A DNA stretch of 64,000 bases from Psammoneis japonica. Lineage: Eukaryota. Under the pieces are notes generated by a model that was given only the letters and a program-made list of their open reading frames with translations, was not told the origin of the DNA and made no database searches. Shown in pieces: positions 3,005-59,664 of the stretch (position 1 is the stretch's first letter; each line of letters begins with the position of its first letter). A program made the position numbers and the translations under genes. The stretch lies in assembly GCA_008632985.1 (NCBI GenBank), contig QPGO01000034.1, positions 201,311 through 265,310 on the forward strand. The letters run 5' to 3'.

Positions 3005-3230
3005 TGGGTGGAAGAAAACAACAACTCCTCACTGCTGTCTAAACAGCAGATGAGTCTCCATGCAGAGACCATTGCAGGAGCCAAAAGACTGGTGTCACGA
3101 TGTCAGTGCAACTGTTGTTGTTCTTGTGAGCCGAGTGGTGGCTCGAAAGCAAGCTGAGCTGAGCGGCACACGGAACTGAGGGCACACACAATTGTGTGTG
3201 ATGAACCAAAATCTTGTTCAAATCCTGTCA
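3005..3230 (-). repeat. 3' LTR of the Copia element
   Basis: Aligns by eye along its length with 10580-10804; TGACAGGATTT...CCACCCA on minus strand. Confidence 0.88.
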
Positions 3231-10579: not shown

Positions 10580-10804
10580 TGGGTGGAAGAAAACAATGAC
10601 TCCTTGCTGCTGTCTAAATGGCAGATGAGTCTCCATGCAGAGACCATTGCAGGAGCCGAAAGACTGGTGTCATGACATTGGTGCTGCTGTCATTGTTTTT
10701 GTGAGCTGAGTGGCTCAAAAGCAAGCTGCATTGCATGTTGCATGCAGAACAAACAACACACACAATTGTGTGTGACAAACCAAAATCATGTTCAAATCCT
10801 GTCA
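10580..10804 (-). repeat. 5' LTR of the Copia element
   Basis: Aligns with 3005-3230. Confidence 0.88.
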
Positions 10805-39200: not shown

Positions 39201-39215
39201 GCTTCGAGTGCCTAG
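36210..39215 (+). CDS. CSTF3: Cleavage stimulation factor 77 kDa subunit / Rna14 (HAT repeats)
   Basis: 1001-aa ORF: SVELWLLYV, LRSIYKRLVTHPMTGLDQLWQEYEAFE, VRRYKGVDAARAVF, AARIYELGL, DTENLRAL. Confidence 0.88.
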   Translation: MAENDDSDPPPSKPILLGGEDAMEEDEVMPSFQTDVTSTGSVELISRIITPSPYAHHMTGPASSRFRNALSRVTTHPTSDIEAWQALITEASACYRNILPTLHSTDADTHAKLDWMESCYGTLLKHFPYASSYYVTIVEMLLAQSARVGEEDGPVVDYGLDPSQRQLRCDAKVDAIFERVLGIQMDGTPVDDAVGGMCTSSVELWLLYVRKRVRDISRHANTLPSQEERAQLVQEGTIAAYELALSNASFVFNNHLLWKQYLAYVQSWMPVPTADHALAQKQMLQLRSIYKRLVTHPMTGLDQLWQEYEAFERAQNEALATALIAEFAPKYQHARSVYLERGRVYNVIDLQMARLATPPVDSADEDYAAKMEEENRLLTLWVKRTSYERTNPERLTPNELVQRIRQAYKEMACAFTLHPEVWHMWSMWEIHRTGAAEPEKVEYAVGVLQRAQVHIPDSTLLSYAEAQAVEVHTEKPSDCMAVMEKFLERSPNTLGFVLYQKMVRRYKGVDAARAVFAKARRVLLDSSHGETQKEDTPDTQEGGAQEATEGETSGANKIVASGSVDDGKRRMVTNRLGASIGTSNKPYPTESAKPNPETPNPGDLQVTGDVIASSQIAPGPITWHLYASHAAMEHLLNRSPAVAARIYELGLRKHVSFLTIPPYVMRYAQLLLELQDTENLRALLTRAVAACEAEEGKGDAIADLWDVTLRFESILSGTTAGNAGAVLAIERKRRAALLGPDIEDVSTGGLLGGGDAVVGIGSQKSSLSEQLVRAEGYDVSSIIVNGMSRTVDVLEIMGLWGKSEATKGPRGAGTKGEAGDDESGGKSDACYKRRLEYQRLINAGISADLAIAGDGNAPGSKMLTARERLQQAGVGGAVQSGQTGATALAIQQSPEWLRPLLLLLPASRYRSAAMNKPPPHMTEMALSSLRGSALPAERPNGDDTVNGSRKRKADGAGDSSDEEDGGLKSGGYGSQFRARQRARHMAESGQQNGTLADASSA

Positions 39216-39363
39216 TAAATCTAGTAAAAAATTCGCGACCTTAAGTGCTACGTGTAGCATCGTTTATGCTGTCGAAGAATCCCGAATTTGAACAAGTCTA
39301 GCATGGGATTTCCTTTTTATGAGGATAGAAGTTGAGACTACATACCGGTACTTCGTCTTGTCG

Positions 39364-40173
39364 TTACACAACTTCAGACAACATCTCATTCATTTCTTCC
39401 TCGGGAGGTTCATTTTGGTTTTGATAAAAATCTTCCTCCTCCCCGCCAAAATCCACATTGACCAAACAACAATCATTAAATGCGCACTCTAAATTTCGCA
39501 TGGCGGCCAAGTCTCGTTTTGTGTAAACCAACGCATTTTCTTTCAAGTATGGCAGCAACAGCCGAATGGCTCTTGCCAAACCAGACTCAACTTTTTCTCC
39601 ATAGGATAACAAAGAATTCCCCAACAACCATACATTGTGAAGATTATTCCAGTTAGATGCCAAAACATTATTGTACAAGAGCTGGGGGCAGTGCGGCATA
39701 TAAAAGATCGTGCTGGACGACACGGGGCGATAACCCCGCTCATTCTTCACCAGGACAACAAAACCAAAGTGATCTTCAAGAATTTCCTTTTCTACTTGCG
39801 ATGTACATGGGTCAAAGTAGTGGACTTTCTGTAAACTGAAGAGCTCTTTGAGGCAGAGAGCACATGCGAGTTGCCTAACAGGCGGCATCTGCTGTCTTCG
39901 AGTGAAGCTCCCGATTCCGTAGCATACCATTTCGGTCGGATGGATACGCTTCATTGAGGGCACCAAGCTAGTTTTGTAAAGGTCAGTCCGTTTCAAATCC
40001 CTTACGCATGTCTGAATCCAGCGCACAACTTGTTCTTTGTCGACATTACAAGCTTCAGAGCCGTCGTCGTCATGCCTTATTCCCAGCGTTCTGATTGGAC
40101 GCCGTCGTCCTTTTGCGATTCGTCGTTTGTCGCTCTTTGTTACAGTCTTCCACTCTTCTTCTTCCTCTGGCAT
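39364..40173 (-). CDS. SRR1: SRR1-like protein
   Basis: MVCYGIGSF, QLA, FDP, TIFYMPHC..LYNNVL..NW..LLGNS, AFND. Confidence 0.88.
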   Translation of the reverse strand: MPEEEEEWKTVTKSDKRRIAKGRRRPIRTLGIRHDDDGSEACNVDKEQVVRWIQTCVRDLKRTDLYKTSLVPSMKRIHPTEMVCYGIGSFTRRQQMPPVRQLACALCLKELFSLQKVHYFDPCTSQVEKEILEDHFGFVVLVKNERGYRPVSSSTIFYMPHCPQLLYNNVLASNWNNLHNVWLLGNSLLSYGEKVESGLARAIRLLLPYLKENALVYTKRDLAAMRNLECAFNDCCLVNVDFGGEEEDFYQNQNEPPEEEMNEMLSEVV

Positions 40174-40193
40174 GATAAGACGTTTATCTATGC

Positions 40194-40779
40194 TGTGGGA
40201 TATTGGACACTGCGCATCGTCAAAAGAGCTCCCGTAGAGGGTGTTGATCGTTTTGTAATTTATTCAGTGGATAGCAGTGATGCGCGAGGTGCGCGCAGAA
40301 TCATCGGAATTGTGGATATTCTCACACTCCCCGGCGGACGGATCACGGATGGATGTTCAAGGTGAAGGAACTGGAGTGGTCTGGACGTAACTGAGTCTTG
40401 AAGATGATTCGATGTAAGCGTGTGTGCTTGATGTGGTGCGTGCCACGTGATGTCAGCGTTGTGACGTTTGACGTTCTGAATGTTGTCTTGTTGAAGATTG
40501 AGCTCTTCCCCGCGGTGCAGACATGCGTGCGAGTAGGGGAGGATCAGCTTTCCGAGGTGAGCGAGCGTGCTGAAGGATCTGAAAGTTGGGAATCGAACCC
40601 TTGGCCTCTAACGTCGTATTGCAACCATGTGGGATTATTGGACCACTGCGCCACTCGTCACCAAAAGAGCTCCCCGTAGAGGGGTGTTGATCGTTTTGTA
40701 ATTTATTCAGTGGAACTGCTGAGTTAGCAGTGATGCGCGAGGTGCGCGCAGAATCATCGGAATTGTGGATATTCTCACA
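40194..40779 (-). mobile_element. TRIM-like miniature LTR element with tRNA-type A/B boxes
   Basis: LTRs 40628-40779 and 40194-40326 (TG..CA on minus); TGG-starting PBS-like site after the 5' LTR; GGGGAG before the 3' LTR; flanks TATGC/TGTGC. Confidence 0.8.
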
Positions 40780-41169
40780 TGTGCACGTCCTGCGTCCTGA
40801 TCTCGGAATTAGTTTTAGGATTTCTTGACTGCGACTCTGGGCCTACGGTACAGCACTTTAGCTACGGTAGTGCGGTACGGTGTGGGCGAGTGGGCCGTCG
40901 CTACTACTCCACTGCCACCACTAGAGTGGAGGCATCCGAGGTGAAAATCTGACGTGTGCATGTGGTGAAAGTGCTGAGCAAGTGTGGTGAATCATCGCGG
41001 CCGCGATGCTGAAAAGAAGACACCATTGCACCACATCATCAAAAGAATGTAAAGAGACATGAGATCACCATCATTAAGATCTACGTTAAAAATCTAAAGC
41101 ACTGGTTTTTAAACACACAATTGCATTGAAACCCCCAAGCAATCTCTCCACGAGTCGTCACCGGTCATC

Positions 41170-42690
41170 TCAAGATGTCCCACTGCCGACAGCTGGTGTG
41201 TTGCACAGGCTCCAACCACTGCCAGTGCCAGCAGCAAAAAACCTCCCACCACCACCAGACCTGGCATTGCACAAAAACTCCAACTGTCGCCAGTGTCGGC
41301 AGCAAAAAGGCTCTCACCATCAGCAGCAACACAAAGGGGGGCCTCCCACCACCGCCACGAGTGCTGGCAGCGACCAGGCTCTCCAACCCCGCCACCACAT
41401 GGCCATCTGTGCAAGCAGTGCAAAAAGGCTCCCACCACCACCAGAGCTGCCGGACAAAAAAGATCCAGCTGCCTCAACAGCCAGCAGCACACAGGCAGCA
41501 CACAGGGGCAGGTGTCGCTGCCAGGAGACAAAAAGGATCGAACCACCTCAATGGTCAGCAGCACACAGGCTCCCACCACCACCAGTGCCAGTGGTCATGC
41601 ACAGGCTCCCACCACCACAACCACCATGAGTGCCAGCAGCAATGCGCAGGGGCAGGTGTCACCACCAGATGAAAAGGATCCAACCACCTCAACAGTCAGC
41701 AGCACACAGGCTCCCACCACCACCAGCGCCAGCAGTTGCACACAGGCTCTCACCACCACAACCACCACAAGTGCCAGTGGCACACAGGGGCAGGCACTGC
41801 TGCAAGACAAAAAGGATCTAGCCACCTCAACAGTCAGCAGTGCACAGAGGCTCCCACCACCGCCCGTGCCAGTGGTCACACATGGGCTCCCACTGCCACA
41901 ACCACCACGAGTGCCAGCAGCATGCAGGGGCAGGTGTTGCCACCAGACAAAAAGGATCCAACCACCTCAACAGTCAGCAGCACACAGGCTCCCACCACGA
42001 CCAGTGCCAGTGGTTGTGCACAGGCTCCCACTGCCACAACCACCATGAGCGCCAGCAACATGCAGGAGGGCACGTGTTGCCGTCAGATGAAAAGGATCCA
42101 ACAGCCTCAACAGCCAGCAACACACAGGCTCCCACTGCCACCAGTGCCAAAGGTTGTGCACAGGCTCCCACCCCCACAACCACCATGAGCACCAGTGTCA
42201 CACAGGGACAGGCACTGCCACCAGACAAAAAAGATCCAATTGCCTCAACAGCCAGCAGCGCAGGCTCCCACCACCGCCACCAGCTCCAGCAGCTGCAGGC
42301 TCCCACTGCCACCAGCGCTGCAGCAATGGTGCACAGGCACCTGCTGCCACCAGGGCTGGGGCCCCAGTGGCAAAAGGTCCAACTGCCTCCAGCACCAGTG
42401 GCATGAGCTCCCACTGCCACAACTGCCAGTGTCTGTGCACAGGCTCCCACTTCTGCCACTGCCATGGCAGCAGCACACAGGCTCCCACTGCCACCAGTGC
42501 CCACAGCAAAAGGCTCCAACCGCCTCCAGTGCCAGCAGCACACAGGTGCCCACCACCACCACTGCCAGCAGTTGTGCACAGGCTCCCACTGCCACCACTG
42601 CCAGCAGCACACAGGCTCCCACTGCCGCCACTGCCAGCAGCAAAACACCTCCAGTCACCACCAGCCAGTGCCAGCGGCGTGCAGGGGCAC
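41170..42690 (+). repeat. Degenerate tandem array, ~140-bp period built from CACAGGCTCCCAC subunits
   Basis: AAAAGGATC-like anchors near 41531, 41672, 41811, 41950, 42090, 42229. Confidence 0.85.
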
Positions 42691-42691
42691 C

Positions 42692-43138
42692 TGCAATGTG
42701 CAGCTGCTGACAAGAGTCAACGCATCACGGCGACGTGTCACAGCCTTTAAATGTCACAAAGGGCGTGACAAAAACAACCTTTTGTCTGCATGCATGCTGC
42801 GTTGTGAATTCATGGCGGAGTGGTTCATCGCAGCCATTGGGCAGGAGGCCAGGGGTTCGAAACCCTGAGTGGGAGTTGTCTGCAGCAACGTTGATCACTG
42901 TCGAACGCGTGAAACTCTGTGCAGTTCTGTGTGTTCCTTCGCACGCACCCACACTGTTCCGCCAAAACCGTGCAGTGTCAGCACACGTTAGCAAAGAGCC
43001 GTGTGGATGCATGACACATGGGGAGGAGTGCAATGTGCAGCTGCTGACAAGAGCCAATGCATCACGGCGACGTGTTGCAGCCTTTAAATGTCACAAAGGG
43101 CGTGACAAAAACAACCTTTTGTCTGCATGCATGCTGCA
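42692..43138 (+). mobile_element. TRIM-like miniature LTR element with internal tRNA-type A/B boxes
   Basis: 110-bp direct repeats 42692-42801 and 43029-43138; PPT GGGGAGGAG at 43020-43028; CACC on both flanks. Confidence 0.8.
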
Positions 43139-44872
43139 CACCCACCAACACCAGACAAAAAGAATCCAACCACCTTGAACGCCGGCAGTGCACAGGCTCC
43201 AACCGCCGCCAGGGCAAAAGCAGCAAAAGGCTCCTGCTGCCACCAGTGCTGCCACATTCAGTTCTGCCATGCACATGAAATCTCATTTTGAAAACAATGC
43301 CATTGGACACCGGAGATGCCGCCAACGAGGCAGCTCTCTTTCAAAGTTTGCAACACGTGTTGTCACATCAAGAAGCGCGTGCTGTGGCGTGGCACTGCGG
43401 GAATGCACTGAAGACACCACCGCTGCATCGTCATCATGAAAGCACCATTTGCATTGGTCCAACGCAAATTTGAACAAGCTGGTGGTGCAACCGCCATTTG
43501 TGCCACCCCACATGACTTTGCCTGTGCAGAATCCTGCGCACAAGTTTGCAAATGCATGGAAGGACAGGCTGAGTGCAACCATTCCCCATTTGCACTGTGA
43601 CGCACACCCCCAATGTTCACAAACAAATGGCTCAATTGCACAACAAAAAAAATCATCACAAAGGAGAAAAACTGGAGGTGCACTCATGCGGTGCAATCAA
43701 GGCGTGGTTGTCATGCACAAGTTTCATCATCTGTGCACATGAAATTTGAGTGGATTCTGGGTGCCATGTGGTGGGGTTTTGTTGTCTTGTCATCTTGTCA
43801 GTTTGGCACCAGTGGTCTCTGTGGACAGCAAATGCATTTGTTTAAAACATGAATGCATGCTTGAGGTTTCAAGAGCAAAAAAACTGTCCTTAAAAGCAGG
43901 GCTCATTCTGGCTGACATCATCAATGGTCAGCACAGGAAAGCTGTTAGCTGCTGGGACATGAGCTGCCAATTGCTGACAGCTTTTTTGTTCCTCACCACA
44001 TGTTCTTTCCACCACAAGAGAACAGCTCATGATCCAGATGATTGCTTGCTTTTCACTGTGCTCCACTTTTAAGTGGTGCTTTAACACGTCATTCAAACAC
44101 ATCATCTTGTCAACAACATTGCCATGGCCAATCAACTGCTGGCTGAGCACATCAAAATGCAATCTGCCAACAAATGTCTCACCAATCCCATGTCCCAAAC
44201 ATTCATTCTGAAATGACATGCATCCCACATGCACAGACACATCACGTTCTCTTCTTGTCCTCCCATCGCCACCAACATGGGCAATGCCAAGCATTGCCTG
44301 GCATTCAACATCAACAAGAATGCCATCAAGAGCACATCTGTGTTGACTCGTGCCAATTGCCTCACCATCATGGGGAATCTCACGAATGCCATCAGCCTTG
44401 TTGAAGTCAAGACTGACAAATTCAAAGCCATGTCTGGCAAGAATTCTCTGAGCAATCTCACCCAGAACTGCCTTGATGATGCAGGCCAACTCAAGCCAAT
44501 CCAAGATGGGCCAGTTGCAGATTGTTGCCCTGATGGAGTCATGCATGCCAAGATCAAAGGCATCATCATCAATCTTGCCTCCCTCAGCAAATCAGTCAGG
44601 AACCCTGCAATCATCTTTTTCATTTTTATTTGTTCACCAAAATGGATGATGCCAATGCAACCAATGCTGCAGAAAACACAGCCAACCCATTCATGTTCAG
44701 TGGCCCAAGCAACTGCATGATGCCAGAGGATCAAGCCTGTCAGGACCTCATCTGCAACAAAAACAATGACAATGCCATCCAGGAGCCATTCAATCTCCAA
44801 GCGCCCAACTTCATGAATCCCAATGAAGCCACCATCTGTGCCAAGGCAAAAGGTGTGAGGATCAACATGCTT

Positions 44873-45350
44873 GTCACTCAAGCAGGATGCAATGTCATCT
44901 TCAATCTTCATGCCCATCATGCCTGCATTTGCAGATGACCCATTCAAGATGCTCAGCAGAGTCCATCAGACTGCTGCTCAGTCAGATGGAGCCATCCAGA
45001 TGAACAAGAAACTCTCCAACCCACCAGAGACTGCTGAAAAGGACCAAGGAGAGGCAGATGACTTGACATCAGAGACTGAGCAGGAGGAACAAAAAGCAAA
45101 TAAGAGCTGGTCACTCAAGCAGGATGCAACGTCATCCTCAATGACATCTTCATGCCCATCATGCCTGCATTTGCAGATGACCCATTCAAGATGCTCAGCA
45201 GAGTCCATCAGACTGCTGCTCAGTCAGATGGAGCATCCAGATGAACAAGAAACTCCCCAACCCACCAGAGCTGCTGAAAAGGACCAAGGAGAGGCAGATG
45301 ACTTGACATCAGAGACTGAGCAGGAGGAACAAAAAGCAAAAAAGAGCTGG
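44873..45350. repeat. ~238-bp tandem duplication
   Basis: GTCACTCAAGCAGGATGCAA..AAGAGCTGG at 44873-45109 and 45110-45350. Confidence 0.88.
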
Positions 45351-48300
45351 TGGATGACAGCGTGGAAGCACAAGCCACCACAGGAGTCAAGAAGAAAGCA
45401 GCTGCATGGAGGCAAAAAGGATTTTTGACAATCTGACAACAGCAGCAAAAGTGGTGGCAGCAGGGGCAACAACAGCAAGTTGGAGCTTCCAAGCACCAAT
45501 GGCAGCAATGTGGCATGCAGGGCACACAGCTGGGTGCCAAGTTGCCACACACAACAAACCCAAAAGAAAAAGCACAGGAAGAAAATCTCAACAAAGATGA
45601 AAAAAGTGCTGCCAGAGCAACAACACATCAAGGATGTCAGAGAAGCACACATGGATTGTTTTGGCACAATGAAACAAGCCTCAACTTGGGGAAGATTCCA
45701 AAACACAAGCAGTGTGGAAAGGTCTGCCAAAAGTGCTCCCAACACACTGCACAGCAGGAGCAGCAGCAGCAATCAACAACCACTGAACACTTCAAAATGA
45801 CATCAGCAAAGTGTGGTCCTGAACTCTGAGCCAAACCATGAAATTCATTTCTGTTTGTTTTCAAACAACGTGTGGTGTGTGCTCTTTTTGCTCAGACAAT
45901 GCTCTCTTTGTTGGGGTTGTGAGCATTTGCAAAAAACAGACAATGCTCTTTTGCTTTGATGTGTCACAGCAAAAAAAAGTTGAATGTTCTTTTTCCAAAA
46001 AATGAGCCAAAACGTGGGGTGCTTGCTTGCTCTCTTTCTTCCATTGAAGAAAAGCTTTGGGCTGCAGAAGAAATGACCAGCCAAAGCCACCCAAGTTGGC
46101 CCGAGTCAACAACACCTGAAGAGAGGTCACAGTTTGAGACTTGGGCCAATCCAGCAAAAAGCTGTTGGGGCAAGTGGAGCATCGATTGGAGATGCCACCC
46201 CAGCTGGCATGATGTCACTTGAAGAGCACAACCTTTTTCAAAGAAGATGATTTTTAAAAGGCTGCAGTGACACCCAAAATGCTGACAAAGTGAAGTTGCT
46301 TGTCAAAAATTGGATCAACAATGCTGGCATCTTTTGTGTGCACAGTTTGAGAGTCATCATGCAATTGTGAAGAACCTTGTTGTGACAAACAGCTGCAGCA
46401 TCGTTGTCTTGTGCAAACTGTTTTCAGCCACAAACGCACACTGAAATTTTCGTGAGCAAAAAAACTGTCAGAAAAAAGAAAAACTGCACACACACATTTA
46501 TTTAAACTGCGCACACTTTTAAAACTTCGAGAGCAAAAAAACTGACAGAAAAAAGAAAAACTGGAGATGCACACATGTGGAACTTCAAAAATTGTCAAGC
46601 AAAGCAACAACTGACAAACCAATGATGATGCCCGACATCACAAAAAAAGCAAACAGAACTTGAGACACCAAACCCACCTTGCGCACTGCCAGAAGAGAGG
46701 CCCCATCACCACCATGGAGCAAGCGGCCATTGCATGGGCAACAGAGCTGATGACCTGTCATTGGCCGCTCATGGTGCTGAAAGGAGTTTGGAGACTTGCC
46801 CTTGATTTCAGAAGAGGAGCAGGTGATTTTTGTGGTGTGTTTTGATTCATTGGTGTTGGGTGTTGAGCACAAGCTCTGACTGCACTGCTGCGCGCGATGC
46901 CTGCACTCATGCTGTCTTGTTTTCATCTCACCCTTTGCAGCAAGAGCACTCCAAACCCTGTCAAGTTGCTTTGCAGAATTTTTGCTCTCAAAACGTCCAC
47001 GCAGCGACTTCAAAATGAGTGTGTCAGTCTGTCCAAAATGTGAAGTGACCTCATTCTGGCCATGATGCAGACTCAGCACGAGAACCTTGCCATTCTGTGG
47101 CAGGTGCACAAGAAAGGAAAAACTGAGAAACAACAGAGGAGCAGTGCGTCCACATGTTGCATGACATTCTTGTTCACTTTCTGTTTCTGTTCTACAGAGC
47201 TGTCATGTCAAGCTGAGGGTTCTCGCCACAAGAGCTCCCGATCTTGCCACAAATGGGAAAAGAGTTGGCAGAGCAAGTGGAAGAGCAATGCAATCTCTTT
47301 TTAGAGGCAAATCAAACACAAAGAAAGCACAAGGCTTGAACAAAAGAGAACCTGCAGTGTGGGCAGATGCATTTTGGTGCCTCTGCAAAGGTGTTGATGG
47401 AAAGACATGCTGTTCAAGAGAAGCTGCAGTGATCAAGGTTGAGGCTCCAGTTGCTTGATGTTTTCTGCACCTGAAGCATGACATCAATTGTGCCTTGAGC
47501 TTGGGATCAAACAATGGCAACAATCATTTGCATTGGATCACACACAAGTTTTGAACCTCAGTCGTTTTCTGTTCTGTGACAGCAGCTCTTTGGTTTGACA
47601 ATGTCATGACTTGATTTGCAATTGGCATGAGACACCAAGTTCTTGAGTCTCTTCTCCAGTTGTGTGGTCCTGTGCATGCAGTGTCCCAAGTCTGCTCTGA
47701 AAATGTGAAGAAACAAGTGCTCTTGCTGCTCCTCCAGCCAGCGCCCATTCAACACTTTTCAACATGACAGCAGAATTTGCACAAAAGACATTTTGCACAC
47801 CACTGTGGTTCACAATCTTTTTGCTCCACAGGATCATCCCACCTGCCATGGGACAATGTTGTGATGCAGTTCTTTCAATCATGAGTGAATGAATTGATTT
47901 CCAGTCTAGCCAGGATTGATCCTCAGGAAATTCACAGAGACAAGGACCAAACAATTGCATGGCAATTGAAGCAAAATTGTAAAAAACTGATGCCTTGCTC
48001 TGCTTTCAAGAGCTTGGAATGCAGTGCAGCACTGTGCAGTGCCAGCAATTGTCACGTTCCTGCCCCAAATCTTCTTTTGTTCTTCAAAGCCCTTGAACTT
48101 TCAACAGAAGAAAGTGGTGGATGCTGGTGGAGTTCCACGCAAAGCTGTGCTGAAACAGAAAAGAGTCTCCAGCAGAAGAGGCCATGAGTTGCCATGCAAA
48201 GCCATGAAACAGAAAAGGGGCAAAGGGCAAAACAACAATGAAACAACTCTGGTTTGGTTGGCTGCTCTCCAAAGAGCCACAGAAAAGCAAACAAAACACC

Positions 48301-48557
48301 CGGTGCCATGGCGCACCTCCTGTGATGCATTTTCTGCACAAATCTCTGTGGGAAAAAGGCAAGCGCCTGCCAACAAGAAATTTGCACCAGAGGGTCAGTT
48401 GAAGAAGACAAAGAAAAGCTGAGCAGAGCTCAGTCAGCCAATCTGCTGTCTCAACCCAGCAGCAGCAGACAAAAAGTTGAGAGAAGAACAACTCCTCCCA
48501 GCATCAATGTGGCTGTGGTTGTGGCAGTCGTGTGACAGCAGCATGTGAAGATGAAAA

Positions 48558-49060
48558 CATCCAGACAAACAAGAAACTCCCTGACCCACCAGAGAGACTG
48601 CTGAAAAGGACCAAGAAGAGGCAGATGACTTGACAGCAAAGAATGAGCAGGAGGAACAAAAAATGAAAAAGAGTTGGTGAGTGACAGCTTGGAAGCACAA
48701 GCCATTGCAGTGCAGTCAAGAAGAAGCAGCTGCATGGGCAGAAAAAGGATTTTTGTGAATCTGACAACAGCAGCAAAAATGGTGGTGGCAGGAGCAACAA
48801 CAGCAAGTTGGAGCTTCCAAGCACCAATGGCAGCAATGTGGTGCGCGGGTGCACAGCTGGGTGCCAATGCATCAAGGATGTCAGACAAGCACAGTGGATT
48901 GTTTTGGCATGATTGAGTGAGTCTCAACTTGGAGAAGATTCCAAAACACAAGCACGTGTGGAAAGGTCTGCAGCCAGTGCTCCCAACACACTGCACAGCA
49001 GCAGCAGCAGCAGCAGTGGTGACAGCAATCAACAAACACTGCACACTTCAAAACTGAAAT
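48558..49060. repeat. Diverged direct copy of ~45234-45800
   Basis: Shared blocks such as CTGCTGAAAAGGACCAAG, GCAACAACAGCAAGTTGGAGCTTCCAAGCACCAATGGCAGCAATGTGG and GAAGATTCCAAAACACAAGCA. Confidence 0.85.
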
Positions 49061-49227
49061 GTGCGCAGGCTCCAGCATGTCTTCTGCTCTGTTTGTGGTG
49101 ATCACAAATTGAAAAAATGAAGCCTGTGTTCAATGTTTGCAAATGGGCGCAATGAGTTGAGTTGGGGTGCTGTTGGCCAGAAAATGATGTGCAAGCCATT
49201 GCGCACCATCGTTCGTTCGAGAGAGAG

Positions 49228-49260
<33 letters not shown>

Positions 49261-49454
49261 CACAGAGAAACAGCAATGGCAGTCACAAGCATCCCACTGG
49301 ACAGATGTGTTGGGTTCATTTGGCAAGCGAGAGAGAGAGAGAGAGAGAGAGAGACGACAACTTGACTTGAATTGAATCAACCTAATCAACCCATCTGTCC
49401 TTCTTTGGATCTTTTTAACGCAACAATGCCCACCGCACGTTAACAACAACAGCC

Positions 49455-49502
49455 GGCCGCTGATGAAGCCACCGCGAAAGTCTCATTCTCCTGACTTTGG
49501 CC
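49455..49502 (+). ncRNA. Minimal type I hammerhead ribozyme (copy 1)
   Basis: GGCCG-CUGAUGA-A-GC(CACC)GC-GAA-AGUC(loop)GACU-U-UGGCC: core plus stems I-III. Confidence 0.72.
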
Positions 49503-52500
49503 AACGTTGTTGTGCCTGCTGTCACTGAAATGGTTGGACAAACATCTGATTGAGCAGCTCCGCCTTGGCTGCTTGCACCGCCATTGTTTGTCACATTTGA
49601 CAGAAAATTGGCTTTGCCAATTTTGATTGTTCGTTTGAGAGAGAGTACAACAACAACAATGGATGCTGCGACCGAGACCACCAACCCAAAACGCGTGCAT
49701 TTCGATTCGACTGCGGTGAACCCAGCCAACCAGCAAACAAGGACACCCCTTGCCACCGCCACCCAATGCATCAGGGACCACATCGTGTCGCTACAACCAG
49801 AAATGGCCACCATCCTCGAGAAGCTTGCCATCAACCAAATCCAACTGTAAGCTGAGGCCCATGACAAGGTCTTTCATGTCCAATGGATGGAAAGTGATGA
49901 GGAGTTCATCCCCTGCTCAGCCCGAATCAATTTCGAATTCCAAATGTCGAAAACTGCTGAACAGAGCCAGGAGTTTTTGGCTCTGCAGGAGGAAACCAAC
50001 GACCTCATCTCTGCCACCCAAAAAGCCTTCAAAAAGCAAGTTGTCCAAGCCACCAGGATTGAACTCAACGTCATCCAAGAAGAAATTTTGGAGTCCTGCG
50101 CGAAAGCCACCCGACTCGCACCCGAAAGTTTCACTGTGGCCGACAGCATCACCACACCTGTCGACACCGCAGTGGTCACCCTGCTTGACCACTGCCATGA
50201 AACACTGCCAAAGCATGTCAAGGTCGAGAACCTCAGTGCGTTTCTCACCAAATGCAAGACAGTGAATGCCATTGCTGATCTGCCGCAACCGCTGGTTGCT
50301 CCAACCGCTCGACAGTCTCAAACTCAAGACAACTAAGCCAGTGACTCCTTGTTCCTTACACAAGAAATAGCACCAGCACCCGCCGCACCACAAATCACCA
50401 CTGCGCAACAGAAAATCGAAACTGAACTCAGCAAGATCTTCCAGGTGCTTGAATGCATCTTCGTGTCTCCCTGGACTGCCTGCCTGGCATCCAAACAGAA
50501 ACATGACATTGGCCTCCAATTGAAGAACTCAACAAGGAACACTTCGATGCGAGGCCACCAAGAGCGTAAACATGGAAATTGATGGCAAAGCTGCAGTCAA
50601 CCCTCCCACCCTCCAAGAGCTCATCCGCAAGGAGACCAAGAAAAATGCCAAAAAGTCTCACAACAGGTCAACACGCTTGCTCAACGCCTCAAGTCCATCA
50701 AAGCACAGCAGTCAAACAACCGAGGGGCCGAAACTACACCACCAGCGCCTCAACACAAAAGAAAAGGCAAATGCCTCAATCATGAAGAAAACGCTCAATG
50801 CGACGGAAGCGACGAGCGACAACGACACACCAGTGCAACAAAAACAATGCGCACTCCAATCGAAACAGCAATCAAAAAAAAGCAGCAGCGCTCCAACAAC
50901 AATCGGAACAGGCACAGAGGCAACAGAGCACGAATCCATCGCACACACGGATTCGTTGCTGACCCATCTCACACAATCTGACACAATGCCTGCACCCACC
51001 TGCGACACATGCCTGCCTGGCACTGCTTCAACAGGCCTTCACACCTTGCCTTCCATGATTGCACCACCACCAAACAACCACCAAAGAACCTCCAATCACT
51101 GCTTGGTCTCAGCTTGAAATTTGTTCCTGCTCCATGCTTCACCAACAACGGGAAGTCCTCCAAGATCCAAGAACATGCACTTGGAAGATTCAAACAAGAC
51201 CTTGACAAATGAGATTGCTTTGCCAATGCGCCTGTCAATGACGACGATGGAGATTGCAATCCCAGGATGCACCTCCGTTCCAACTGGACCCCCCCTTCCT
51301 GGAAACTCACTGACATTGTCACCCATCGATGCACCACTTTTAAATCACAAGTCACCAACCTCTTTGTGAAACGCCATGGCAGAGCCAACCCACTGCCCCA
51401 CCAACAACGTGCCCTGGCCTTTCTTTGCAAACAAGACGACTTCACAATGGCCCAATGCGACAAGAACCTGGGGCCCGCCATCATCGAAAAAAACCGAGTG
51501 CATCAAGATGGCATTTCGCGATCATCTCAACGACGCCAACGCGTGTCGATTTTTGAGCAAGTTTGAAGCTAGAACCCAAGAACACAGCATCAAAAACCTC
51601 CTCAATGACTGGCTCAAGACATGTAAAACCAGCCTCACCCCGATGGAACGTGAGTGTCTGAAACATTGTCTTGAAACCAACAAAGACCCGTTCCCCATCT
51701 TCTGCCTCACTCCAAAGGTGCACAAGCCCCCTCCGCTCCGATCCCAACCAATCGTCTCTGCCAGTGGTGGCCTGCTCTACGGCTCAGGCATCTGGGTAGA
51801 TGACAAGCTCCAGAAAGTTGCTCGCCGCCAACGATCATGCTTCAAGAGCTCCCTGGACCTGAAACAAGCACTTGTTCAAATGGAAACACCATCGCATTGC
51901 CTCCTCTTCACATCCAATGCCGAGGCCTGCTGCTCCAACATGCCCACCAGAAAAGCACTTCGATTGATTGCCTCCTGCCTCCGATGTCATGAACACAAAT
52001 GTGACGACGTGCCAATGCATGCCCTCATCAAAGCCCTCCGAATTGTGATGGAAAATAATGTGTTCACCTTTGGAGACACCACTTGGCACCAGCGCAATGG
52101 AACCACCATGGGCACACCACCCGCCCCTCCGTGTGCCACCTTGTGCTGCTGCACTCCATGAAGACATGCTCCTGGAGGAGTTTGGCTCCCAGCTTTTTCA
52201 TTACAAACAATTTGTCAATGATGTCTTTGGCATTTGGCACATTGCTGACACTGCCACTGATGCCGCCACCTGGGAAGCATTTGCCTCCAGACTGAATGAC
52301 TTGACACCACATGGATCACGAGCCCACAAAGCCACCAAGTTAACTTCAGGACCTGAAATCTCGCTCCAAGGCCCCCACATCCACACCACCCTCTATGAAA
52401 AAGAAATGAATCTGTGCATGTGCATCCCACCTCACTCAGCTCACCCGCCTGGAGCACTCACCTGCCTCATCATGGGCATGCTCCGCCACTTTAAAAACCT

Positions 52501-52924
52501 GTGCTCCACCGCTGACGCAAAAGCAAAAGTAAGCCCACTCTGCCTTCGACTGCAAACCCAGGGTTACAAACCCAGCAAACTACAACCGCTCTTCCAAAAA
52601 GCACCCATGACCTCATCTTTGGCAATGCTGACAGAACAATGGAAGAGCCCCAGTCAAACCCAATCTTCCTGCATCTTCCTCACCACCCAAACGACCGCCA
52701 TCCAGTGAACTGCAGAAATTGTGGAAAGGCACAATGGCCAACCCTCCCCACTCACAACCTCTCTCAAACCTTTGAAATCACGCCCGACAACGCATCAGCC
52801 TCAACGCATGATTGTTTGTTGCAGCCACTCCTGCAATCTTGGAAATCTCCTTTCCTGCCGCATGCTCCGAGTCTCCCATGGCCTCCCAGTTTCGTCCTGT
52901 CAGATTACAAACACGGAGGCCACT

Positions 52925-52964
<40 letters not shown>

Positions 52965-53065
52965 ACGACAACTTGACTTGAATTGAATCGATTTAATCAA
53001 CCCGTCTGTCCTTCTTTGGATCTTTTTAACACAACAACGCCCACCGCACGTTGACAACAACAGCC

Positions 53066-53113
53066 GGCCGCTGATGAAGCCACTGCGAAAGTCTCATTCT
53101 CCTGACTTCGGCC
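53066..53113 (+). ncRNA. Minimal type I hammerhead ribozyme (copy 2)
   Basis: GGCCG-CUGAUGA-A-GC(CACU)GC-GAA-AGUC(loop)GACU-U-CGGCC with a perfect 5-bp stem I. Confidence 0.78.
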
Positions 53114-54617
53114 AACGTTGTTGTGCCTGTCATTGCTGAAACAGTTGGACAAATGTCCGATTGAGCAGCTCTGCCTCAGCTGCTTGCATTGCCATTGTTT
53201 GCCACATTTGATGGAAAATTGGCTTTGCCAATTTTGATCATTCGAGAGAGAGAGAGAGAAACAGCAATGGCAGTCACAAGCATCCCACTGGACAGATGTG
53301 TTGGGTTCATTTGGCAAGATGTCAGGACAGCAGCAACAAGCACAGTGCCAGGGATGAAAGAAAGTGAGCAGAAGATCCAGAGAGATCTGGCCACCAGCCG
53401 CCATCTGCATGGACTCCTCATGTCTGTCTTGATGGGCTTGAGTTGATGGGTGTGCACACAGCAGCACACCCTGTTCAGCCAGATGGCTGTGTCAGACTTT
53501 GCAAGCTGCTTGCAGAGTTGTCAGGAGAACAAGCAGCTTGGAGCTTTGAATTTCTGTGTTGCTGCCACCCCTCTTCAGAGAGATCACACACACATCATCA
53601 GCAAAGTGGCCAGCCTCCCTCCTGTGCAGCTGCCAAAATTCACTTTTTGTGCAAATGTGCTGCAGAGTGTGCTGCATTCATCCTGCTTTTGCATCACTGT
53701 TTCAGACACCCAAGCTGTGCACAGCTGCTGCGCAGGTGGCGGTGGTCTGCCCCACTGCTTTGCCCCTCATTTTCCTTGTCAAGCCCAGTTTGTTCTCCCT
53801 TCTCAAGCTTTTCGTCTCTCACAATGCTGCCCACAGCAGCACTTGCAGGAACAAAAACTGCCATGTGGGAGATTTTCTTTGTCTTGTCTTTGTCTCAATG
53901 TCCGCTGGCATCTCCCCCCCCCCCTGACATGTGACTGCAATGACACAGCCATGCCACCCAAAAAGAGCCATGCACAGCTTTTCACATCTCTCTGGTGCTT
54001 GCCATTTTGAGGCTTCTTGTTTGCTGTCTGAGGAGAGTGACACAGAAGCAATGATGCTGTGGCGAAGCACGGCTTTGGCAGAGGTCGTGTGCAAACAAGT
54101 TGCACAGTTGACAAGAGAAACTTTCTTGCTGCACTTGAGAGCGCCATGGCTGACCAACAAAAGTGCTCAGTCCAACTCTGTTGCTGGTTGGTGGTGGTGG
54201 TTGTGAGTCTTGGGTGTTCCATGCACTGCTCTGATTTTTGTTTTCTTGCTCAAGCGCATTGTTTGCTCACACTGTGATTCTCTTGTGTGTTTCAAGCCCT
54301 TGCACGACCCAACAATGTGTCTTGCTGCTGGCTCCTCCTGCCCCACCCATGGCGGCTGAGGATCTGGCAGTCCACGAGGACAGGGCATCGTCCATCGTCT
54401 CTCTTCCTTGTGTGTTTGCGATTGTGCACTGCACCGGTGCGACCTGCGACCCCAGCTCGGCCGGCAACAAAAAGTGACGCGCGTCGAATCGCGCAAGTGA
54501 GGAATTAGTAGGAATTGAAGTTGCAAGTTGGCATCGACCCTCGTGTTCACTGTTCACGTTCCTTCGTTCGTAATAGCAGATCAGTGAAACTTGCGTTTTG
54601 TGGATGTCGCTGTGGCC

Positions 54618-55628
54618 ATGGCAATCGCAAGTGCGGAAGTGTCGGACAACAGCTACGCACCACCATCTGCTGAGAAAGCAGCCAAAAGTCAGAACAGCGT
54701 AATTGAAGGTGATGTGGAAAGGATGGAGGGAAAATGCCGTGACCTTCGTCGCAAGCTGCGCGCAACTAGACAACGACGAGTGGAAGTGAATCGCAAGCTA
54801 GAATTGGTTGCAGTGGACGAGTATCCCAAGTGGTTGGAGAAAAGAAATGAAGCAGAACGTAGACGTAGCGAGGCTCTAGGAAAGTTCTGCTTGACGCTTT
54901 CGCGCTGCGATTTGGAATCTTCCAAGCTGGACGTGGCACGAAAGTGGAATGTTACAAACGATTGCTTTTATGTGTGGCGTTCAGGACCCTTTGGGACAAT
55001 CAATGGCCTTCGCTTAGGAAGTGAGGTACCTCCGCTTCCGTACAATGGAAATACTACCAATGATGGAACGATCTTTAGGACTATGGATACGAATGCAACC
55101 AATCCGGCAAGCAATGGTGGTGACGTCGATCCGGAAAAAGTTGAAAGAGACGCAGATATGGAAGAGGAAACCGGTTACAAAGTTCCATGGATGGAAATCA
55201 ACTCCGCTCTTGGACTGGTTGCTTTGCTTCTATCGACATTGGAGCAGAAACCGCACAGTTGGATTCGATTCACAAACGAGATTGTTCCAATGGGGAGCTG
55301 CAGCAAGATCGGGTGGCGCCGTGGCGAATCCGTAACAATGTACAATCTTTACTCGGATGACAGTTTCCAGCTTTTTGGGAAGAGAAATTTTAACATTGCA
55401 TTGAATTGTCTCTTAGCCTGCGTTTCTGAGGCTGCTGCGGAGGTGTTGAAGCGAAATCGAACGATTGCCCTCCCACACTCCATCGAAATGGTTTCAGGAG
55501 AGTACGCCATTGGTGGGCTTTCCGTATCATATGGCGTTGATGGCGAACGATGGACACGAGCTATGAAATTCCTTCTGACTGATCTAAAGTGGCTTGTTGC
55601 CTTCACAGCGAAGCACGTCGACAGATAG
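54618..55628 (+). CDS. ATG6: Beclin-1/Atg6 (Vps30)-like protein
   Basis: NVTNDCFYVWRSGPFGTINGLRLG, VPWMEINSALG, IVPMGSCSKI, ERWTRAMKFLLTDLKWL. Confidence 0.9.
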   Translation: MAIASAEVSDNSYAPPSAEKAAKSQNSVIEGDVERMEGKCRDLRRKLRATRQRRVEVNRKLELVAVDEYPKWLEKRNEAERRRSEALGKFCLTLSRCDLESSKLDVARKWNVTNDCFYVWRSGPFGTINGLRLGSEVPPLPYNGNTTNDGTIFRTMDTNATNPASNGGDVDPEKVERDADMEEETGYKVPWMEINSALGLVALLLSTLEQKPHSWIRFTNEIVPMGSCSKIGWRRGESVTMYNLYSDDSFQLFGKRNFNIALNCLLACVSEAAAEVLKRNRTIALPHSIEMVSGEYAIGGLSVSYGVDGERWTRAMKFLLTDLKWLVAFTAKHVDR

Positions 55629-55672
55629 ACAAATACAGGGACGAGTATGGCTCTACTATTCTGGTCAGTACA

Positions 55673-57967
55673 TCACGGCTTATCACTTTCGGGAACATTC
55701 TCACTCCACTCTGAACGTATTGTTCCCAAGAGATTTTTACGAAGGGCGTTGGGCATTTCGTGATGTGCTTGCTCTAGAATTGCACGGTCGACTTTCCCAG
55801 CGTCGCAACAACCTTGGAAGACTGCTTCTAATAGCTCGATGCGTTCGTAGTAATCACACGTGAGGCGAAAGCATGCAGCCAATAAGATAGAAAATGTTCG
55901 TGACTGCGGCTTTCCAAATTCAGGAGACTGCTGTAGTTCCTCGAACGTCCGAAGAGCCGTTGTGAGAGCGCCTCGCCGTTGCTCTTCGGACATCCACTGA
56001 GTCCTAGCGCAGGCGTTTATCACACGTCCAAATGCAAATGCGTCGGGCTTGGCACTTTCGTTTCCTTTACGGTACTCTTCAATCATGTGTTTGAGCACTT
56101 CGGAAGCGTTCACAAACTGTCTGGGATTGTCAGTACGAGACCAGCATTCAATAACAGACGTATAACTATGAGCATCTGGCCTCACCGTCGTTCTCCCTCG
56201 ACGATATGTATCTTCCATCCTAGTCACAAATTCCCGGGCGGTCGAAGCAGCATCATTTCGCCTCCGCCGTCGTTTTGCCAGTGCATTCAAAACGCTGTTG
56301 TAGCTGATAATGTCTGGCTTGGCTTTTTCATTACCTCTCTTGTACGCCGCTTCCATTTGATCAAGAATTTTCTTGGCAGTTCTAGAATCGCCTTGCTTGG
56401 CCAGTGCGTCCAAGACTGCATTGTAGCTATAGGAGTCCAGAGAACTGAACCTTTCAATCTTTTGTAACAAAGATTTAGCGCGGTACGCTGAATTTGGATG
56501 TCTACTCCTCGCCCAAGCTGTTATAACCGCATTCCCGGTAACGGAAGTAGGTTTGAGGTCATCATCTCCGCTTGTTTGGTGCAGCTGTATCAGTCGATCA
56601 AGAAGTGCTTCGGCGCGTTCAGCTGCGTCTCGTACATTCGTACTCCTTGACCACGCTTTGATGCACGTGGTGAAGCTAACGTAGTTTGGTTTTACGTCAT
56701 AGCCGTCGGCGTGTAGCTTCTCCATATGCTCAAGGATATGCTGCGCACGCATTGCGGCGTTACCGGACGAGTCTCGGCATTGTGCCCAGGCATCCAAGAT
56801 GAGCGACATAGTTCGCGTGTTCGGCTTTATACCAATGTCGTCAGGGTCGCCTGTGTCACTTCCGAGTTCTTTGCTCTCATCTAAGCTTTCCATCATTTTC
56901 AAGATTTCTTCTGCTTTTACAGCTGCATACTGTCCCTGTCCACTATTTACCCAGGCGTGAACGACAGAGTTGAACGCGACAACGCCTGGCTTAATCACAG
57001 TAGCGCCATCCACCACGTTCCGGTTGAATACTTTATCACGTCGCCCTTCAATTGCGTGCTCGAGAATAACAGTTGCGCGCTCTGCGGCGTACAATGACTT
57101 TGTCTGTGCCCAACAGTCCAGGACTCCACTCAAGGATCGTGAATTGGGCAAGTCGCCAACGTATACGGACGCAAATTGTTCCTTGCAGTCTCTAGCCCAC
57201 GTTTCCATCATTGTGAACACCTCTTCCGCTCTGGTACCAGCATCTGGTTCTCCACTTTTCGCCCATGCATTGATAACGATGTTAAACGTTCTAGCCGTGG
57301 GTTCAGGAGGCTTGACCTTGAACTCATTTGCATCTTGTGCGTAATCTCGACACGTAGTGAGCATCCGCGTTAGGATTGAATGAGCGCGCAGAGCGGCGTC
57401 CTTGCCTCCAGCACAAGTCGCATAGGCATGTAAAACCTTGTTATACGACACGGTATCTGGTATCAAATGCTTTCCGTGTTCTCTGTCGGAATCCATATTT
57501 TGTTCGAGAGCCACAAGTAACGATTCCGCCTGTATGGCTGCATCCATTCCAACGTATTGTGATGTCTCAGCCGCATTCCCAGCGGCTTTTGACCATGCCT
57601 CTAGTATCCGATCAATCTCCTTAAAGTTCGTTGAAAGCAACTTAGTAGCTTCATCATCTAAATCATGCGAGGGATCGCCCAGAGCTCTCACTAAATTCGA
57701 AGTGTCCTGGACAAGATCTTCGTCCAAGTCCAACGTAGGGTTTCCAGAGCTTTGCCCATTTCTATCTATAAGTGAATGTCCGGAACGCGATTCATAGTGC
57801 AGAGAATGGGAAAGATCATCCATTCTCGCCTCCCCGAGAATAATCCAATAGAAGTCTCTTTTAGTTTGAGAATTGGGACAACCGAAAATGCTCGGCGCTG
57901 CTCGTCGGAAACAGTTGGCAGCCCGTCGTCTCGAGAGCAACAACGTTGCTTTCATGATTCCTGACAT
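55673..57967 (-). CDS. Pentatricopeptide repeat protein, probably mitochondrial
   Basis: Repeated PDTVSYNKVLHAYA / TFNIVINAWAKSG / PDIISYNSVLNALA motifs; Arg/Ser-rich N-terminus. Confidence 0.92.
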   Translation of the reverse strand: MSGIMKATLLLSRRRAANCFRRAAPSIFGCPNSQTKRDFYWIILGEARMDDLSHSLHYESRSGHSLIDRNGQSSGNPTLDLDEDLVQDTSNLVRALGDPSHDLDDEATKLLSTNFKEIDRILEAWSKAAGNAAETSQYVGMDAAIQAESLLVALEQNMDSDREHGKHLIPDTVSYNKVLHAYATCAGGKDAALRAHSILTRMLTTCRDYAQDANEFKVKPPEPTARTFNIVINAWAKSGEPDAGTRAEEVFTMMETWARDCKEQFASVYVGDLPNSRSLSGVLDCWAQTKSLYAAERATVILEHAIEGRRDKVFNRNVVDGATVIKPGVVAFNSVVHAWVNSGQGQYAAVKAEEILKMMESLDESKELGSDTGDPDDIGIKPNTRTMSLILDAWAQCRDSSGNAAMRAQHILEHMEKLHADGYDVKPNYVSFTTCIKAWSRSTNVRDAAERAEALLDRLIQLHQTSGDDDLKPTSVTGNAVITAWARSRHPNSAYRAKSLLQKIERFSSLDSYSYNAVLDALAKQGDSRTAKKILDQMEAAYKRGNEKAKPDIISYNSVLNALAKRRRRRNDAASTAREFVTRMEDTYRRGRTTVRPDAHSYTSVIECWSRTDNPRQFVNASEVLKHMIEEYRKGNESAKPDAFAFGRVINACARTQWMSEEQRRGALTTALRTFEELQQSPEFGKPQSRTFSILLAACFRLTCDYYERIELLEAVFQGCCDAGKVDRAILEQAHHEMPNALRKNLLGTIRSEWSENVPESDKP

Positions 57968-58145: not shown

Positions 58146-58169
58146 GAGATAAATAATACGGTGTAATTG

Positions 58170-59664
58170 TTATTTTTTACTGTAGGCGGCGGCTGATGAC
58201 GTCAGACGCATTCGCACAATAAAACCGTTGGTTTCCCCGCCGCAACTCTTCCTCTGCTGTGCGTGGAAGGCCGTTTTCAAAATCTCCAGAGCAGAAAAAC
58301 CTTCTACCTCTTCTACTGACAGATCCCTTGTTGTTGCTTCACTCAACAATGACAGCTTCTTCCTTCTTCCTTTTACCTCTTTTTTTCCATCAACTGCTCT
58401 TTGGCTCTTTGCTCTCCACCAGCGCCTGCTCTCAGCCCAAGCCTCCCTGCTGGCCCTTCTCATCCAATCTGCACCACTCCAATGCCTCCCATTCTGCCTT
58501 CCTCTGTGCTTTGATGTCTCCATCTGCCCTTCTTCTGCTGCTGATTTCACCTGGAATTGCCTCTTTCCAGCAAAAAGCTGCTTTGGCAGCAGAGTGCACC
58601 ACCATTCTGCCTCTTCTTCTCAAGAACGGGTGCCATCCAAACACTTGGTCGCGACCTTGTTTGTCATTTTTCCATGCACACCCTTTGCTTCACCTCCTCT
58701 CTCTGCACTGATTCATCTCCTGCTCCCTCTGCCAAATGCCCTGCATCCTGCTTTTTGCACCTGCTCTGCTCTTTGCTCCACTGCTGCAGCTGCTTCCGTG
58801 CCTGCTTCTCTGCTGTTTTCCTTTCCATTCTCAATGGGCTCTTTGACAACTCTGCACTCAGTTTTAAATTGCTGTCATGCAAGGCACACAATGCCACAAT
58901 CTTCTCATCACTTTTGACACAAATTGTTTTGGTTGATTGCCACATTGACTTTGTTCAGCTTTCAAGGGTTGGGGTTGTTGACCTGCAAAACAACCGTGTG
59001 ACGAAGATGTCACTAAGAGGAGAAGAAAGAAGGTTGCCAAACATGAATGCCATGACATCCCAAGGTTGCCTTGGCCTTCCTCTGGCTCTAATTGTTTGCT
59101 CTAATTTGGTGTCCTTGGTCTTCTTCCCACTCCAGACTTCTTGTTTTGTCATGTTGCGCTCGAGTGCACCTCCAATGTTAAGTCCATTTCTTGTTGCTTT
59201 CAATTTTCATTCATGAATTGTTGCCAACAGTCCCTTTTGCTTTCATTGTCGAAATGCAGAAATGAAACCTTTCATGAATTCTCCAAAAGATGTTGTCAAG
59301 GACAAGGAGACCACTTGCAGCAAGAAGTGTGTCAGAGCTGCAAAGACTGCTAGAATTGATGCAGCTTCTCCTGAGAGCCTGCCTCCAGTGCCAAACCATC
59401 TTCTTCCGATGCTCCTTCGACTTACAACATCTGCACGTACCCCTTCTTGACCATTCGAGGAATCGCAGCCATTGAAAAATGAAGACTGAAGGTTTTCTGC
59501 GTCATTGTCATACGGGCTTTGTTTTTTAAGTTTTGGGGGAGAGTCGTCATGACAGATTATTGTTGGAGATAGGTAGAGCATGTAGCGCGGCAACTGTAGC
59601 AACACCCCGCCTTCTTGGCCGCTAAGGAAGGCAATGGGGTTAACAAGCGGCAAAGTTGTCATTC
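58170..59664 (-). pseudogene. Broken gene-like sequence with a TpA/CpG-depleted core
   Basis: Fragmentary minus-strand ORFs with normal composition at both ends and almost no TAC/TAT/CG in ~58250-59420; no recognisable domain. Confidence 0.35.

Follow-up and report, generated by a model that had tools for sequence, protein, structure and literature searches.

Regional, strand-symmetric loss of TpA dinucleotides from inserted DNA in Psammoneis japonica

In ascomycetes, repeat-induced point mutation (RIP) makes TpA from CpA and mutates both partners of a duplication; it depends on RID/DNMT4 and the sexual cycle. Hypermutation of TpA itself is known from Bigelowiella natans, where it affects integrated DNA of nucleocytoplasmic large DNA viruses and virophages (Mettrop et al., bioRxiv 10.64898/2026.01.13.699255). 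According to the accessible part of that preprint, two viral inserts received 231 of the 302 new mutations in mutation-accumulation lines of B. natans, almost every one at TpA and in some lines only; the rate was raised about 1000-fold, per generation, and deamination of A by ADAT2 was proposed. Diatom transposons are described, in the part of the source available, as CG-methylated by DNMT5 (PMC9998398). Here we describe a TpA-depleted domain of P. japonica, at 40932-54505 of a 64,000-nucleotide stretch of contig QPGO01000034.1 (hereafter the window), which adds five unrelated sequences standing at different stages of loss, one of them with a source that is still intact, and a neighbouring intact element that serves as control.

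The domain resembles the B. natans inserts, as far as the accessible preprint text portrays them, in that TpA goes to TpG or CpA by transitions only, on both strands, regionally, in silent foreign DNA and independently of copy number; the low-TpA genes of B. natans also include reverse transcriptase (RT) and transposase domains. In P. japonica, too, T:A>C:G changes were confined to TpA, struck both strands and were regional, falling on mobile DNA with genes spared. Unlike in B. natans, near saturation was found in about half of the genomic bins that we sampled, in all transposon classes and in copies of host DNA. We also saw a preference for TAY over TAG over TAA, fronts of graded loss and a CpG clock that runs more slowly, none of which the available preprint text reports. 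The B. natans rate was measured in living lines of a different lineage, whereas ours is deduced from copies and is relative only. As in fungal RIP, dinucleotide-specific transitions kill repeats and spare genes; unlike in RIP, the direction is the opposite (TpA is lost), and the source as well as many near-identical copies are spared, so that neither C:G>T:A change at CpA nor mutation of both copies was seen. A literature search, covering few subscription papers, returned no diatom report of TpA hypermutation and one precedent, the 2026 preprint on two viral inserts. We regard the process as real and well supported, belonging to a kind that a single preprint has described. Mobile DNA of every class is affected, across the genome, and the flank rule, fronts and CpG clock make up a fingerprint by which the enzyme could be sought, as well as providing a test system that can be cultured. 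Because the mutated copies lose Tyr although their long frames persist, they escape Pfam and mislead transposon dating.

Extent and regional targeting of TpA loss

The window consists of gene-rich DNA alternating with TA-poor blocks. The preliminary description had delimited a second hypermutated domain at 41110-54500, and the depletion itself was borne out by a TA observed/expected ratio (O/E) of 0.06; the left edge had to be moved to about 40932. Between 41110 and 54500 we counted 47 TA, where base composition predicts 803 and genic density about 466 (Poisson p 5e-137), with a CG O/E of 0.34 and a TG/CA ratio of 1.75, whereas three genic stretches of the window gave 0.52-0.62 for TA and 0.98-1.09 for CG. 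The few surviving TAs followed their flanks: relative to genic density, and taking both TA-poor blocks of the window, survival was 0.81 for TTAA, 0.21 for CTAA/TTAG, 0.11 for CTAG, 0.10 for GTAA/TTAC and 0-0.01 for RTAY (R, purine; Y, pyrimidine). The last sensitive GTAC lies at 40876, and most of the six TAs between 41050 and 41110 stand in resistant contexts; since the survivors obey the flank rule and a dispersed element begins there, the left edge was set near 40932. The right edge, at 54505, directly precedes the Atg6 gene, and the final part (53028-54505) has no TA at all.

Inside this domain (Table 1) lie a Penelope-like retroelement, a terminal-repeat retrotransposon in miniature (TRIM) nested in a dispersed element with an internal tandem array, a decayed gag-like fragment, duplications and a copy of host-like DNA. 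That array, TRIM, duplications and Penelope element are all present and TA-poor, as had been noted from the letters, although the array turned out to be the inside of a larger dispersed element and the 240-bp duplication to post-date the loss. The earlier suggestion of a family-independent process was upheld, with TA>TG/CA change either polarised or visible as TG/CA discordance between copies in Penelope, TRIM, the array element and the host-DNA copy; yet not all repeats are hit.

Targeting is regional and independent of family, coding status and copy number. In the host-DNA copy, the 71 TAs of the source read 30 TG, 28 CA, 1 TA, 2 CG and 10 other, and the 51 CGs read 38 TG/CA, 6 CG and 7 other. 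A small long terminal repeat (LTR)-like element at 40191-40781, with a tRNA-like interior, lies just upstream of SRR1, only 150 bp from the domain, and keeps its TA. One of four close copies has retained 16/16 TA, the others 15, 12 and 11, and the element is absent from an allele in both read runs examined (X1 and X2). Eleven Copia copies that are 98-99% alike mostly keep their TA. Their private changes number 36 at TA vs 17 at CG, and 22 of the 36 come from one copy. That single copy holds a graded front: over 3.6 kb it has lost 144/153 TA and 22/230 CG, after which TA loss falls to 13/19, 5/28 and, in the 3' part, 1/81 (background 1.1% vs 0.6%). TA-intact copies exist for three families, one of them adjoining the block. 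Pairing-based RIP is excluded as the rule because the host source is intact, near-identical Copia copies are intact and a front runs inside one copy.

In the 91-Mb assembly containing the window, to which our genome-wide counts refer, we sampled 75 1-kb bins from 15 fixed places (75 kb). TA O/E was below 0.2 in 41/75 bins, and 10/75 were TA-poor (<0.4) yet had CG of at least 0.7; all 26 TA-normal bins had CG of at least 0.7, none being CG-poor.

Direction, independence and order of the changes

The changes are T:A>C:G transitions confined to TpA, strand-symmetric, made site by site and far faster than CpG decay. Between two Copia copies (L031>L057), 109/123 TA had changed, 55 to TG and 54 to CA, along with 25/122 CG. 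In a polarised pair of Penelope-like copies (L165>L164), A>G occurred at 56/220 sites after T, 1/601 after A, 17/552 after C and 2/521 after G, and in another polarised comparison at 111/246, 10/329, 18/333 and 3/293, respectively. Change at AA stayed at background level in these two and in a further count of 3/476, as it did in the TRIM cells (3/1148); C>T at CA (6/332) was likewise at background. This Penelope-like pair (on contigs C412 and C214) represents a second family, whose two copies are 96-98% alike and at differing stages of TA loss.

TA>TG or TA>CA was made separately in each copy, after insertion. The TRIM outcomes were 544 TG and 637 CA, so both strands are affected; the four closest Penelope copies disagree as to TG or CA at 198/347 site pairs; within a TRIM, its two LTRs match at 219/336 sites, where independence predicts 210; and one target-site duplication (L089) reads TG on one side and TA on the other. 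No strand runs were found in five pairs (p 0.06-0.95), and covariance among TRIM sites was flat past 4 bp. At closer range in the TRIM alignment, TA sites spaced by 2 bp were positively linked in outcome (z 3.1), whereas for a spacing of 3-4 bp the link was negative (z -3.0), as the first hit alters the context of its neighbour.

The preliminary description also held that in a younger insert TA loss runs ahead of CpG loss. The order stands, but the youngest insert is the TRIM, not the Penelope element, and it displays the lag far better. The TRIM set comprised the best 40 of 322 candidates, retrieved with a mutated query, and the window copy; two of the 41 places (L086 and L090) look like one insertion, leaving at most 40 events. 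Over the 41 places TA persists in 163 of 1362 TA-class cells, TG/CA has replaced CG in 78 of 902 CG-class cells, and background transitions amount to 20/6744; in changes per base this is about 1.06 for TA, 0.045 for CG and 0.003 for background. The TA rate in this family is thus at least about 23 times CpG decay and at least about 350 times background, CpG decay itself being 15 times background. CG methylation by DNMT5, as the accessible account presents it, would explain CG>TG/CA in the same blocks and not TA>TG/CA, CG change being here about 23 times the slower.

The window TRIM has lost 31/34 TA-class and 2/22 CG-class sites, the window Penelope element, aligned with its four closest copies, 70/87 and 49/129; at other sites the latter differs from its nearest copy by 2.1% transitions and 0.4% transversions. 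TA loss exceeded CG loss in 41/41 TRIM copies and in 4/4 of the closest Penelope copies, CpG loss nowhere equalling or exceeding it in these young copies. In all 30 Penelope loci TA O/E was 0.02-0.15, with CG ranging over 0.03-0.81. Retention of many CpG and few TAC at 49600-52200 was confirmed (101 CG, O/E 0.59; 14 TA, O/E 0.09, of which 5 TAC). By stage the block runs from TRIM through Penelope, then the host copy and array element, to gag, and TA is nearly exhausted in all of them; that this can happen while much of the CG is still present follows from a TA rate far above that of CpG decay.

The Penelope element offers a test at the protein level. It was identified as such because of its direct repeats, its database relatives, a telomerase-like fold and a hammerhead-like core. 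The repeats, of the pseudo-LTR kind, are 300 bp long, 90% alike and 3611 bp apart, and differ by 14 CA/TG swaps and no transversion. The RT has 342 database relatives of about 640 amino acids. One named homologue comes from Cylindrotheca closterium, in keeping with the diatom-like look of the genes. A model of an intact homologue (pLDDT 88) had telomerases as its top structural matches (Z 15.4, root-mean-square deviation 7.4 over 338 aligned, and Z 15.0), with a diversity-generating retroelement RT close behind (Z 14.4); Foldseek ranked viral polymerases first by E-value and telomerases best by TM-score, and a PDB sequence search with the Penelope alignment gave nothing below E 0.4. From the model, the RT is probably telomerase-like. 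A hammerhead-like core pattern occurred in 18/30 Penelope loci vs 3/30 Copia loci, with no Rfam match and folding z of -0.55 and 0.0. Pseudo-LTR repeats, telomerase-like RT fold and microsatellite ends, and perhaps the hammerhead-like core, are shared with Penelope-like elements as the available parts of two accounts describe them (PMC8557442, PMC4209133). Unlike in the endonuclease-bearing (EN+) elements of those accounts, no GIY-YIG endonuclease was detected by Pfam in three intact homologues, the C-terminal part of which was not modelled alone. A 75-bp piece, 97% alike at 49253-49327 and 53244-53318, adjoins both ends of the element with (GA)n runs and may be a long target duplication or a tail.

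The changes FYLT to FCLT, PPYATLY to PPCATLC and NLYxYIPP to NLCMCIPP had been proposed from the letters; the window frames do carry FCLT, PPCATLC and NLCMCIPP, but the ancestral form needs one amendment. Among 120 intact relatives examined, the first motif has Tyr in 75/75 pattern-matching proteins, and the remaining motifs have Tyr, Trp, Phe or His and never Cys; the first Tyr of NLYxYIPP is mostly His (73, vs Tyr in 35, of 108 pattern-matching homologues). Of the 15 columns in which at least 60% of relatives have Tyr, the window copy reads Cys at 11, His at 2 and Tyr at 2, whereas other conserved columns are kept at 195/239 (Arg, 6/12). Pooled over 16 genomic Penelope copies, the Tyr columns hold 126 Cys, 54 His, 16 Tyr and 6 other; a column with Cys (TGY) in one copy and His (CAY) in another is the outcome to be expected of TAY hit on either strand. 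Intact homologues do not share the Cys residues: across 264 proteins, 11 conserved columns hold 3 Cys vs 2194 Tyr. In a search for hypermutated homologues from other organisms, none of these 264 (the scorable ones among 266 database proteins) has 30% or more Cys/His at the Tyr columns, and gene callers would drop most such copies.

Possible mechanisms

We consider it somewhat probable that the TpA changes come from a chromatin-guided DNA adenine deaminase, for which an enzyme can be named only as a candidate, alongside slower decay of methylated CpG. DNA inserted in the block takes single hits at TpA on either strand, TAY being preferred, then TAG, then TAA, and a site is lost at its first hit, which leaves TG or CA. 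In the proposed mechanism, a deaminase of the host with the TadA/ADAT fold, acting on adenine in DNA and recruited to silenced chromatin, would turn the A of TpA into inosine, to be copied as G, and CpG loss would keep a second, slower clock through decay of 5-methylcytosine. Genome defence would be the outcome, Tyr codons becoming Cys or His codons and the element dying with no stops needed. TadA-type enzymes prefer a 5'-T. The genome has an ADAT2-like gene (on contig C26) with the Asn emphasised in the B. natans preprint, as well as a TadA-like gene with a signal-like N-terminus and dCMP, guanine-type and RibD-type deaminase genes (the last two labelled by eye). More tentatively, about half of the genome may have been rewritten by a native DNA adenine base editor that follows silent chromatin and not sequence pairing, an A-directed counterpart of RIP/APOBEC defence common to stramenopiles and rhizarians. 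If true, a native DNA adenine deaminase would be a new chemistry for genome defence, relevant to base editing.

Several points weigh against the deaminase reading. None of the deaminase or methylase genes of the genome is linked to the TpA process; ADAT2 is to our knowledge universal, and the Asn in question is presumably normal for it. The letters are compatible with attack on A or on the paired T, and the guidance by chromatin is something that we infer from them. Strand runs, as left by a deaminase sliding on single-stranded DNA, were not seen, which fits the decay of a marked base equally well. The mutated query means that TA-intact TRIM copies were under-sampled. In two TA-rich array-element copies, one of which lies inside a TA-poor block, CG O/E is 0.27-0.45, and these may represent CG loss without TA loss or a natively CG-poor unit.

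The main rival is just such a mark followed by decay, in which a modified base at TpA in silenced DNA (methylated A, or oxidised or alkylated T) miscodes or is converted. Hydroxymethyluracil occurs at TA steps in dinoflagellates, and the palindromic target, equal strands, single independent hits and restriction to transitions all follow the logic of 5-methyl-CpG decay. We nevertheless hold it less likely, as TpA changes at no less than 350 times the background rate, well beyond the 15 times of CpG decay, and no Tet/JBP candidate was found in the genome (a search weak for absence, of which adenine methyltransferases were not part); the on/off behaviour between B. natans lines in the accessible preprint text also suggests an enzyme. 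Improbable is a RIP-like system in which duplicates find each other and both are mutated. The targets are mostly repeats, the genome has 31 DNA-methylase matches (many of them C5-methylases, the set being unsorted by class), and diatoms carry the RID-related DNMT4, according to the part of the source available (PMC9998398). Such a system is contradicted by the intact source of the mutated 46708-48122 copy, by the eleven near-identical Copia copies and the front inside one of them, and by the single-copy target of B. natans reported in the available preprint text. RIP, moreover, makes C>T.

Error-prone repair synthesis of the polymerase eta type (WA>WG, with W for A or T), perhaps triggered by repair of deaminated 5-methylcytosine, seems to us very improbable. 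A>G at TA is the best-known error of this polymerase, and TA and CG loss occupy the same domains; yet AA>AG was only at background, which already largely refutes this reading, transversions were almost lacking, and 90% of TA can be gone with CG loss still below 10%. We give hardly any credence to the idea that element RNA underwent A-to-I editing which reverse transcription then fixed, or to inheritance from a mutated master, despite the preference of RNA deaminases for a 5' U stated in the preprint text available (bioRxiv 10.64898/2026.01.13.699255) and the inherited mutated state of the 240-bp duplication: TG and CA are equally frequent, which means that both strands were hit, LTR pairs are independent, non-retroelement DNA is mutated, and the L089 target duplication differs as TG/TA. 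For these elements, strand symmetry and the independence of LTRs refute such readings. An assembly or base-calling artefact is equally hard to credit. The two read runs, X1 and X2, come from one sample of one study, which may be the source of the assembly, and X2 covers 9/30 bins, its lack of cover elsewhere carrying no weight as evidence. Still, an X1 contig over 46534-48823 carries the TA-free letters (11 differing letters, 8 gaps), and graded fronts and CG decay are unlike an artefact. Ten of the X1 differences are listed; none restores TA and six are at CpG, as is to be expected of a block whose TA is exhausted. At the TRIM an X1 joint skips 451 bases, which points to an allele without the insert or to a further array-element copy. 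X2 gave a 226-base contig on the TRIM that bears 14 differences, all three of those listed restoring a TA, and loose ends that are TA-rich relatives of the array.

Features of the region and additional observations

Table 1. Coordinates of features in and around the TpA-depleted domain (positions in the window)
Feature	Position	Strand	Description
Left flanking gene, SRR1 domain	39364..40263	-	Unmutated; PF07985, E 5e-36
Young small LTR-like element, control outside the domain	40191..40781		TA intact (17 TA), CG O/E 1.11; 55-bp repeats 100% alike
TpA-depleted domain, corrected edges	40932..54505		TA O/E 0.06; element start at 40932 common to other copies
Dispersed non-coding element with internal 140-bp tandem array (~41495-42680)	40932..43583		Array and 43185-43583 co-occur at other loci
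TRIM, 447 bp, inside array element	42692..43138	+	Youngest insert; two ~110-bp LTRs, purine tract, 4-bp target duplication CACC
Decayed gag-like fragment of LTR element	43889..44989	+	Oldest by CpG loss; 71% match to L191/L192
240-bp tandem duplication	44871..45380	+	235 columns with 4 differences, none of them a CA/TG swap
Copy of host-like DNA	46708..48122	+	Source C17:55471-56875, with normal TA and CG
Older duplicate of 45221-45800, mutated separately	48541..49060	+	14 CA/TG swaps among 34 differences, 305 columns
Penelope-like retroelement	49335..53245	+	300-bp direct repeats 49335-49634 and 52946-53245; broken RT frame; (GA)n ends
TA-free stretch of no recognised identity, up to Atg6 gene	53246..54505		0 TA in 1260 bp
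Right flanking gene, Atg6/Beclin	54588..55628	+	Unmutated; PF04111, E 1e-39

TA-rich copies of the array element lie on contigs C256 and C301, and in the best array match 16 of 19 TA read TG/CA in the window and none TA; the 140-bp units differ from one another mostly by CA/TG swaps. Counts for the ends of this element include overlapping matches. The TRIM shows the features of its class at 42692-43138, with 109-bp repeats ending in TG...CA, a non-coding interior that looks tRNA-like by eye and has no Rfam match, a purine tract and a target duplication; 4-bp target duplications were read by eye at 35/40 other TRIM places. Loci L191 and L192, which match the gag fragment, have long gag-protease-like frames (motifs by eye; no Pfam match), and 69 of the 81 CGs of L192 read TG/CA in the window. 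The 240-bp duplication, having no TG/CA swap, arose after TA loss and does not count as separate evidence of that loss. In the stretch 53246-54505, which matched none of the compared loci past its first 140 bp, CG recovers from about 54350 while TA remains absent. Rfam gave no match in 39000-56000, and Pfam matched none of 11 peptides from the two mutated domains of the window.

Some further deaminase-fold and methylase genes were observed in the genome. An intact 320-codon AID/APOBEC-like frame (L214, G000:C2:247476-247712, minus strand) matches the NAD1 profile at E 1.6e-10, and its Atlas neighbours are APOBEC clusters at 0.90. At the edge of a TA-poor tract, a deaminase-fold gene (L070, G000:C151:67565-67717) has apparent Tyr>His/Cys changes and would be a non-transposon gene hit by the mutator. 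A 491-codon frame (L065, G000:C79:88506-88676) joins a zinc deaminase to what by eye appears to be a 2-oxoglutarate/Fe(II) oxygenase and probably serves purine breakdown. A multi-gene cassette that includes a C5 DNA methylase occurs in several copies (L179-L181, L185, L205 and L209, on C297 and C301) within TA-poor DNA (TA 0.07-0.11, CG about 0.7); the other frames of the cassette have no Pfam match, and it may be a large mobile element or a viral insert.

Elsewhere in the window, the first TA-poor block (2700-19000; TA 0.05, CG 0.20) contains Copia remains, and a small third one lies at 58150-58950 (TA 0.23, CG 0.34).

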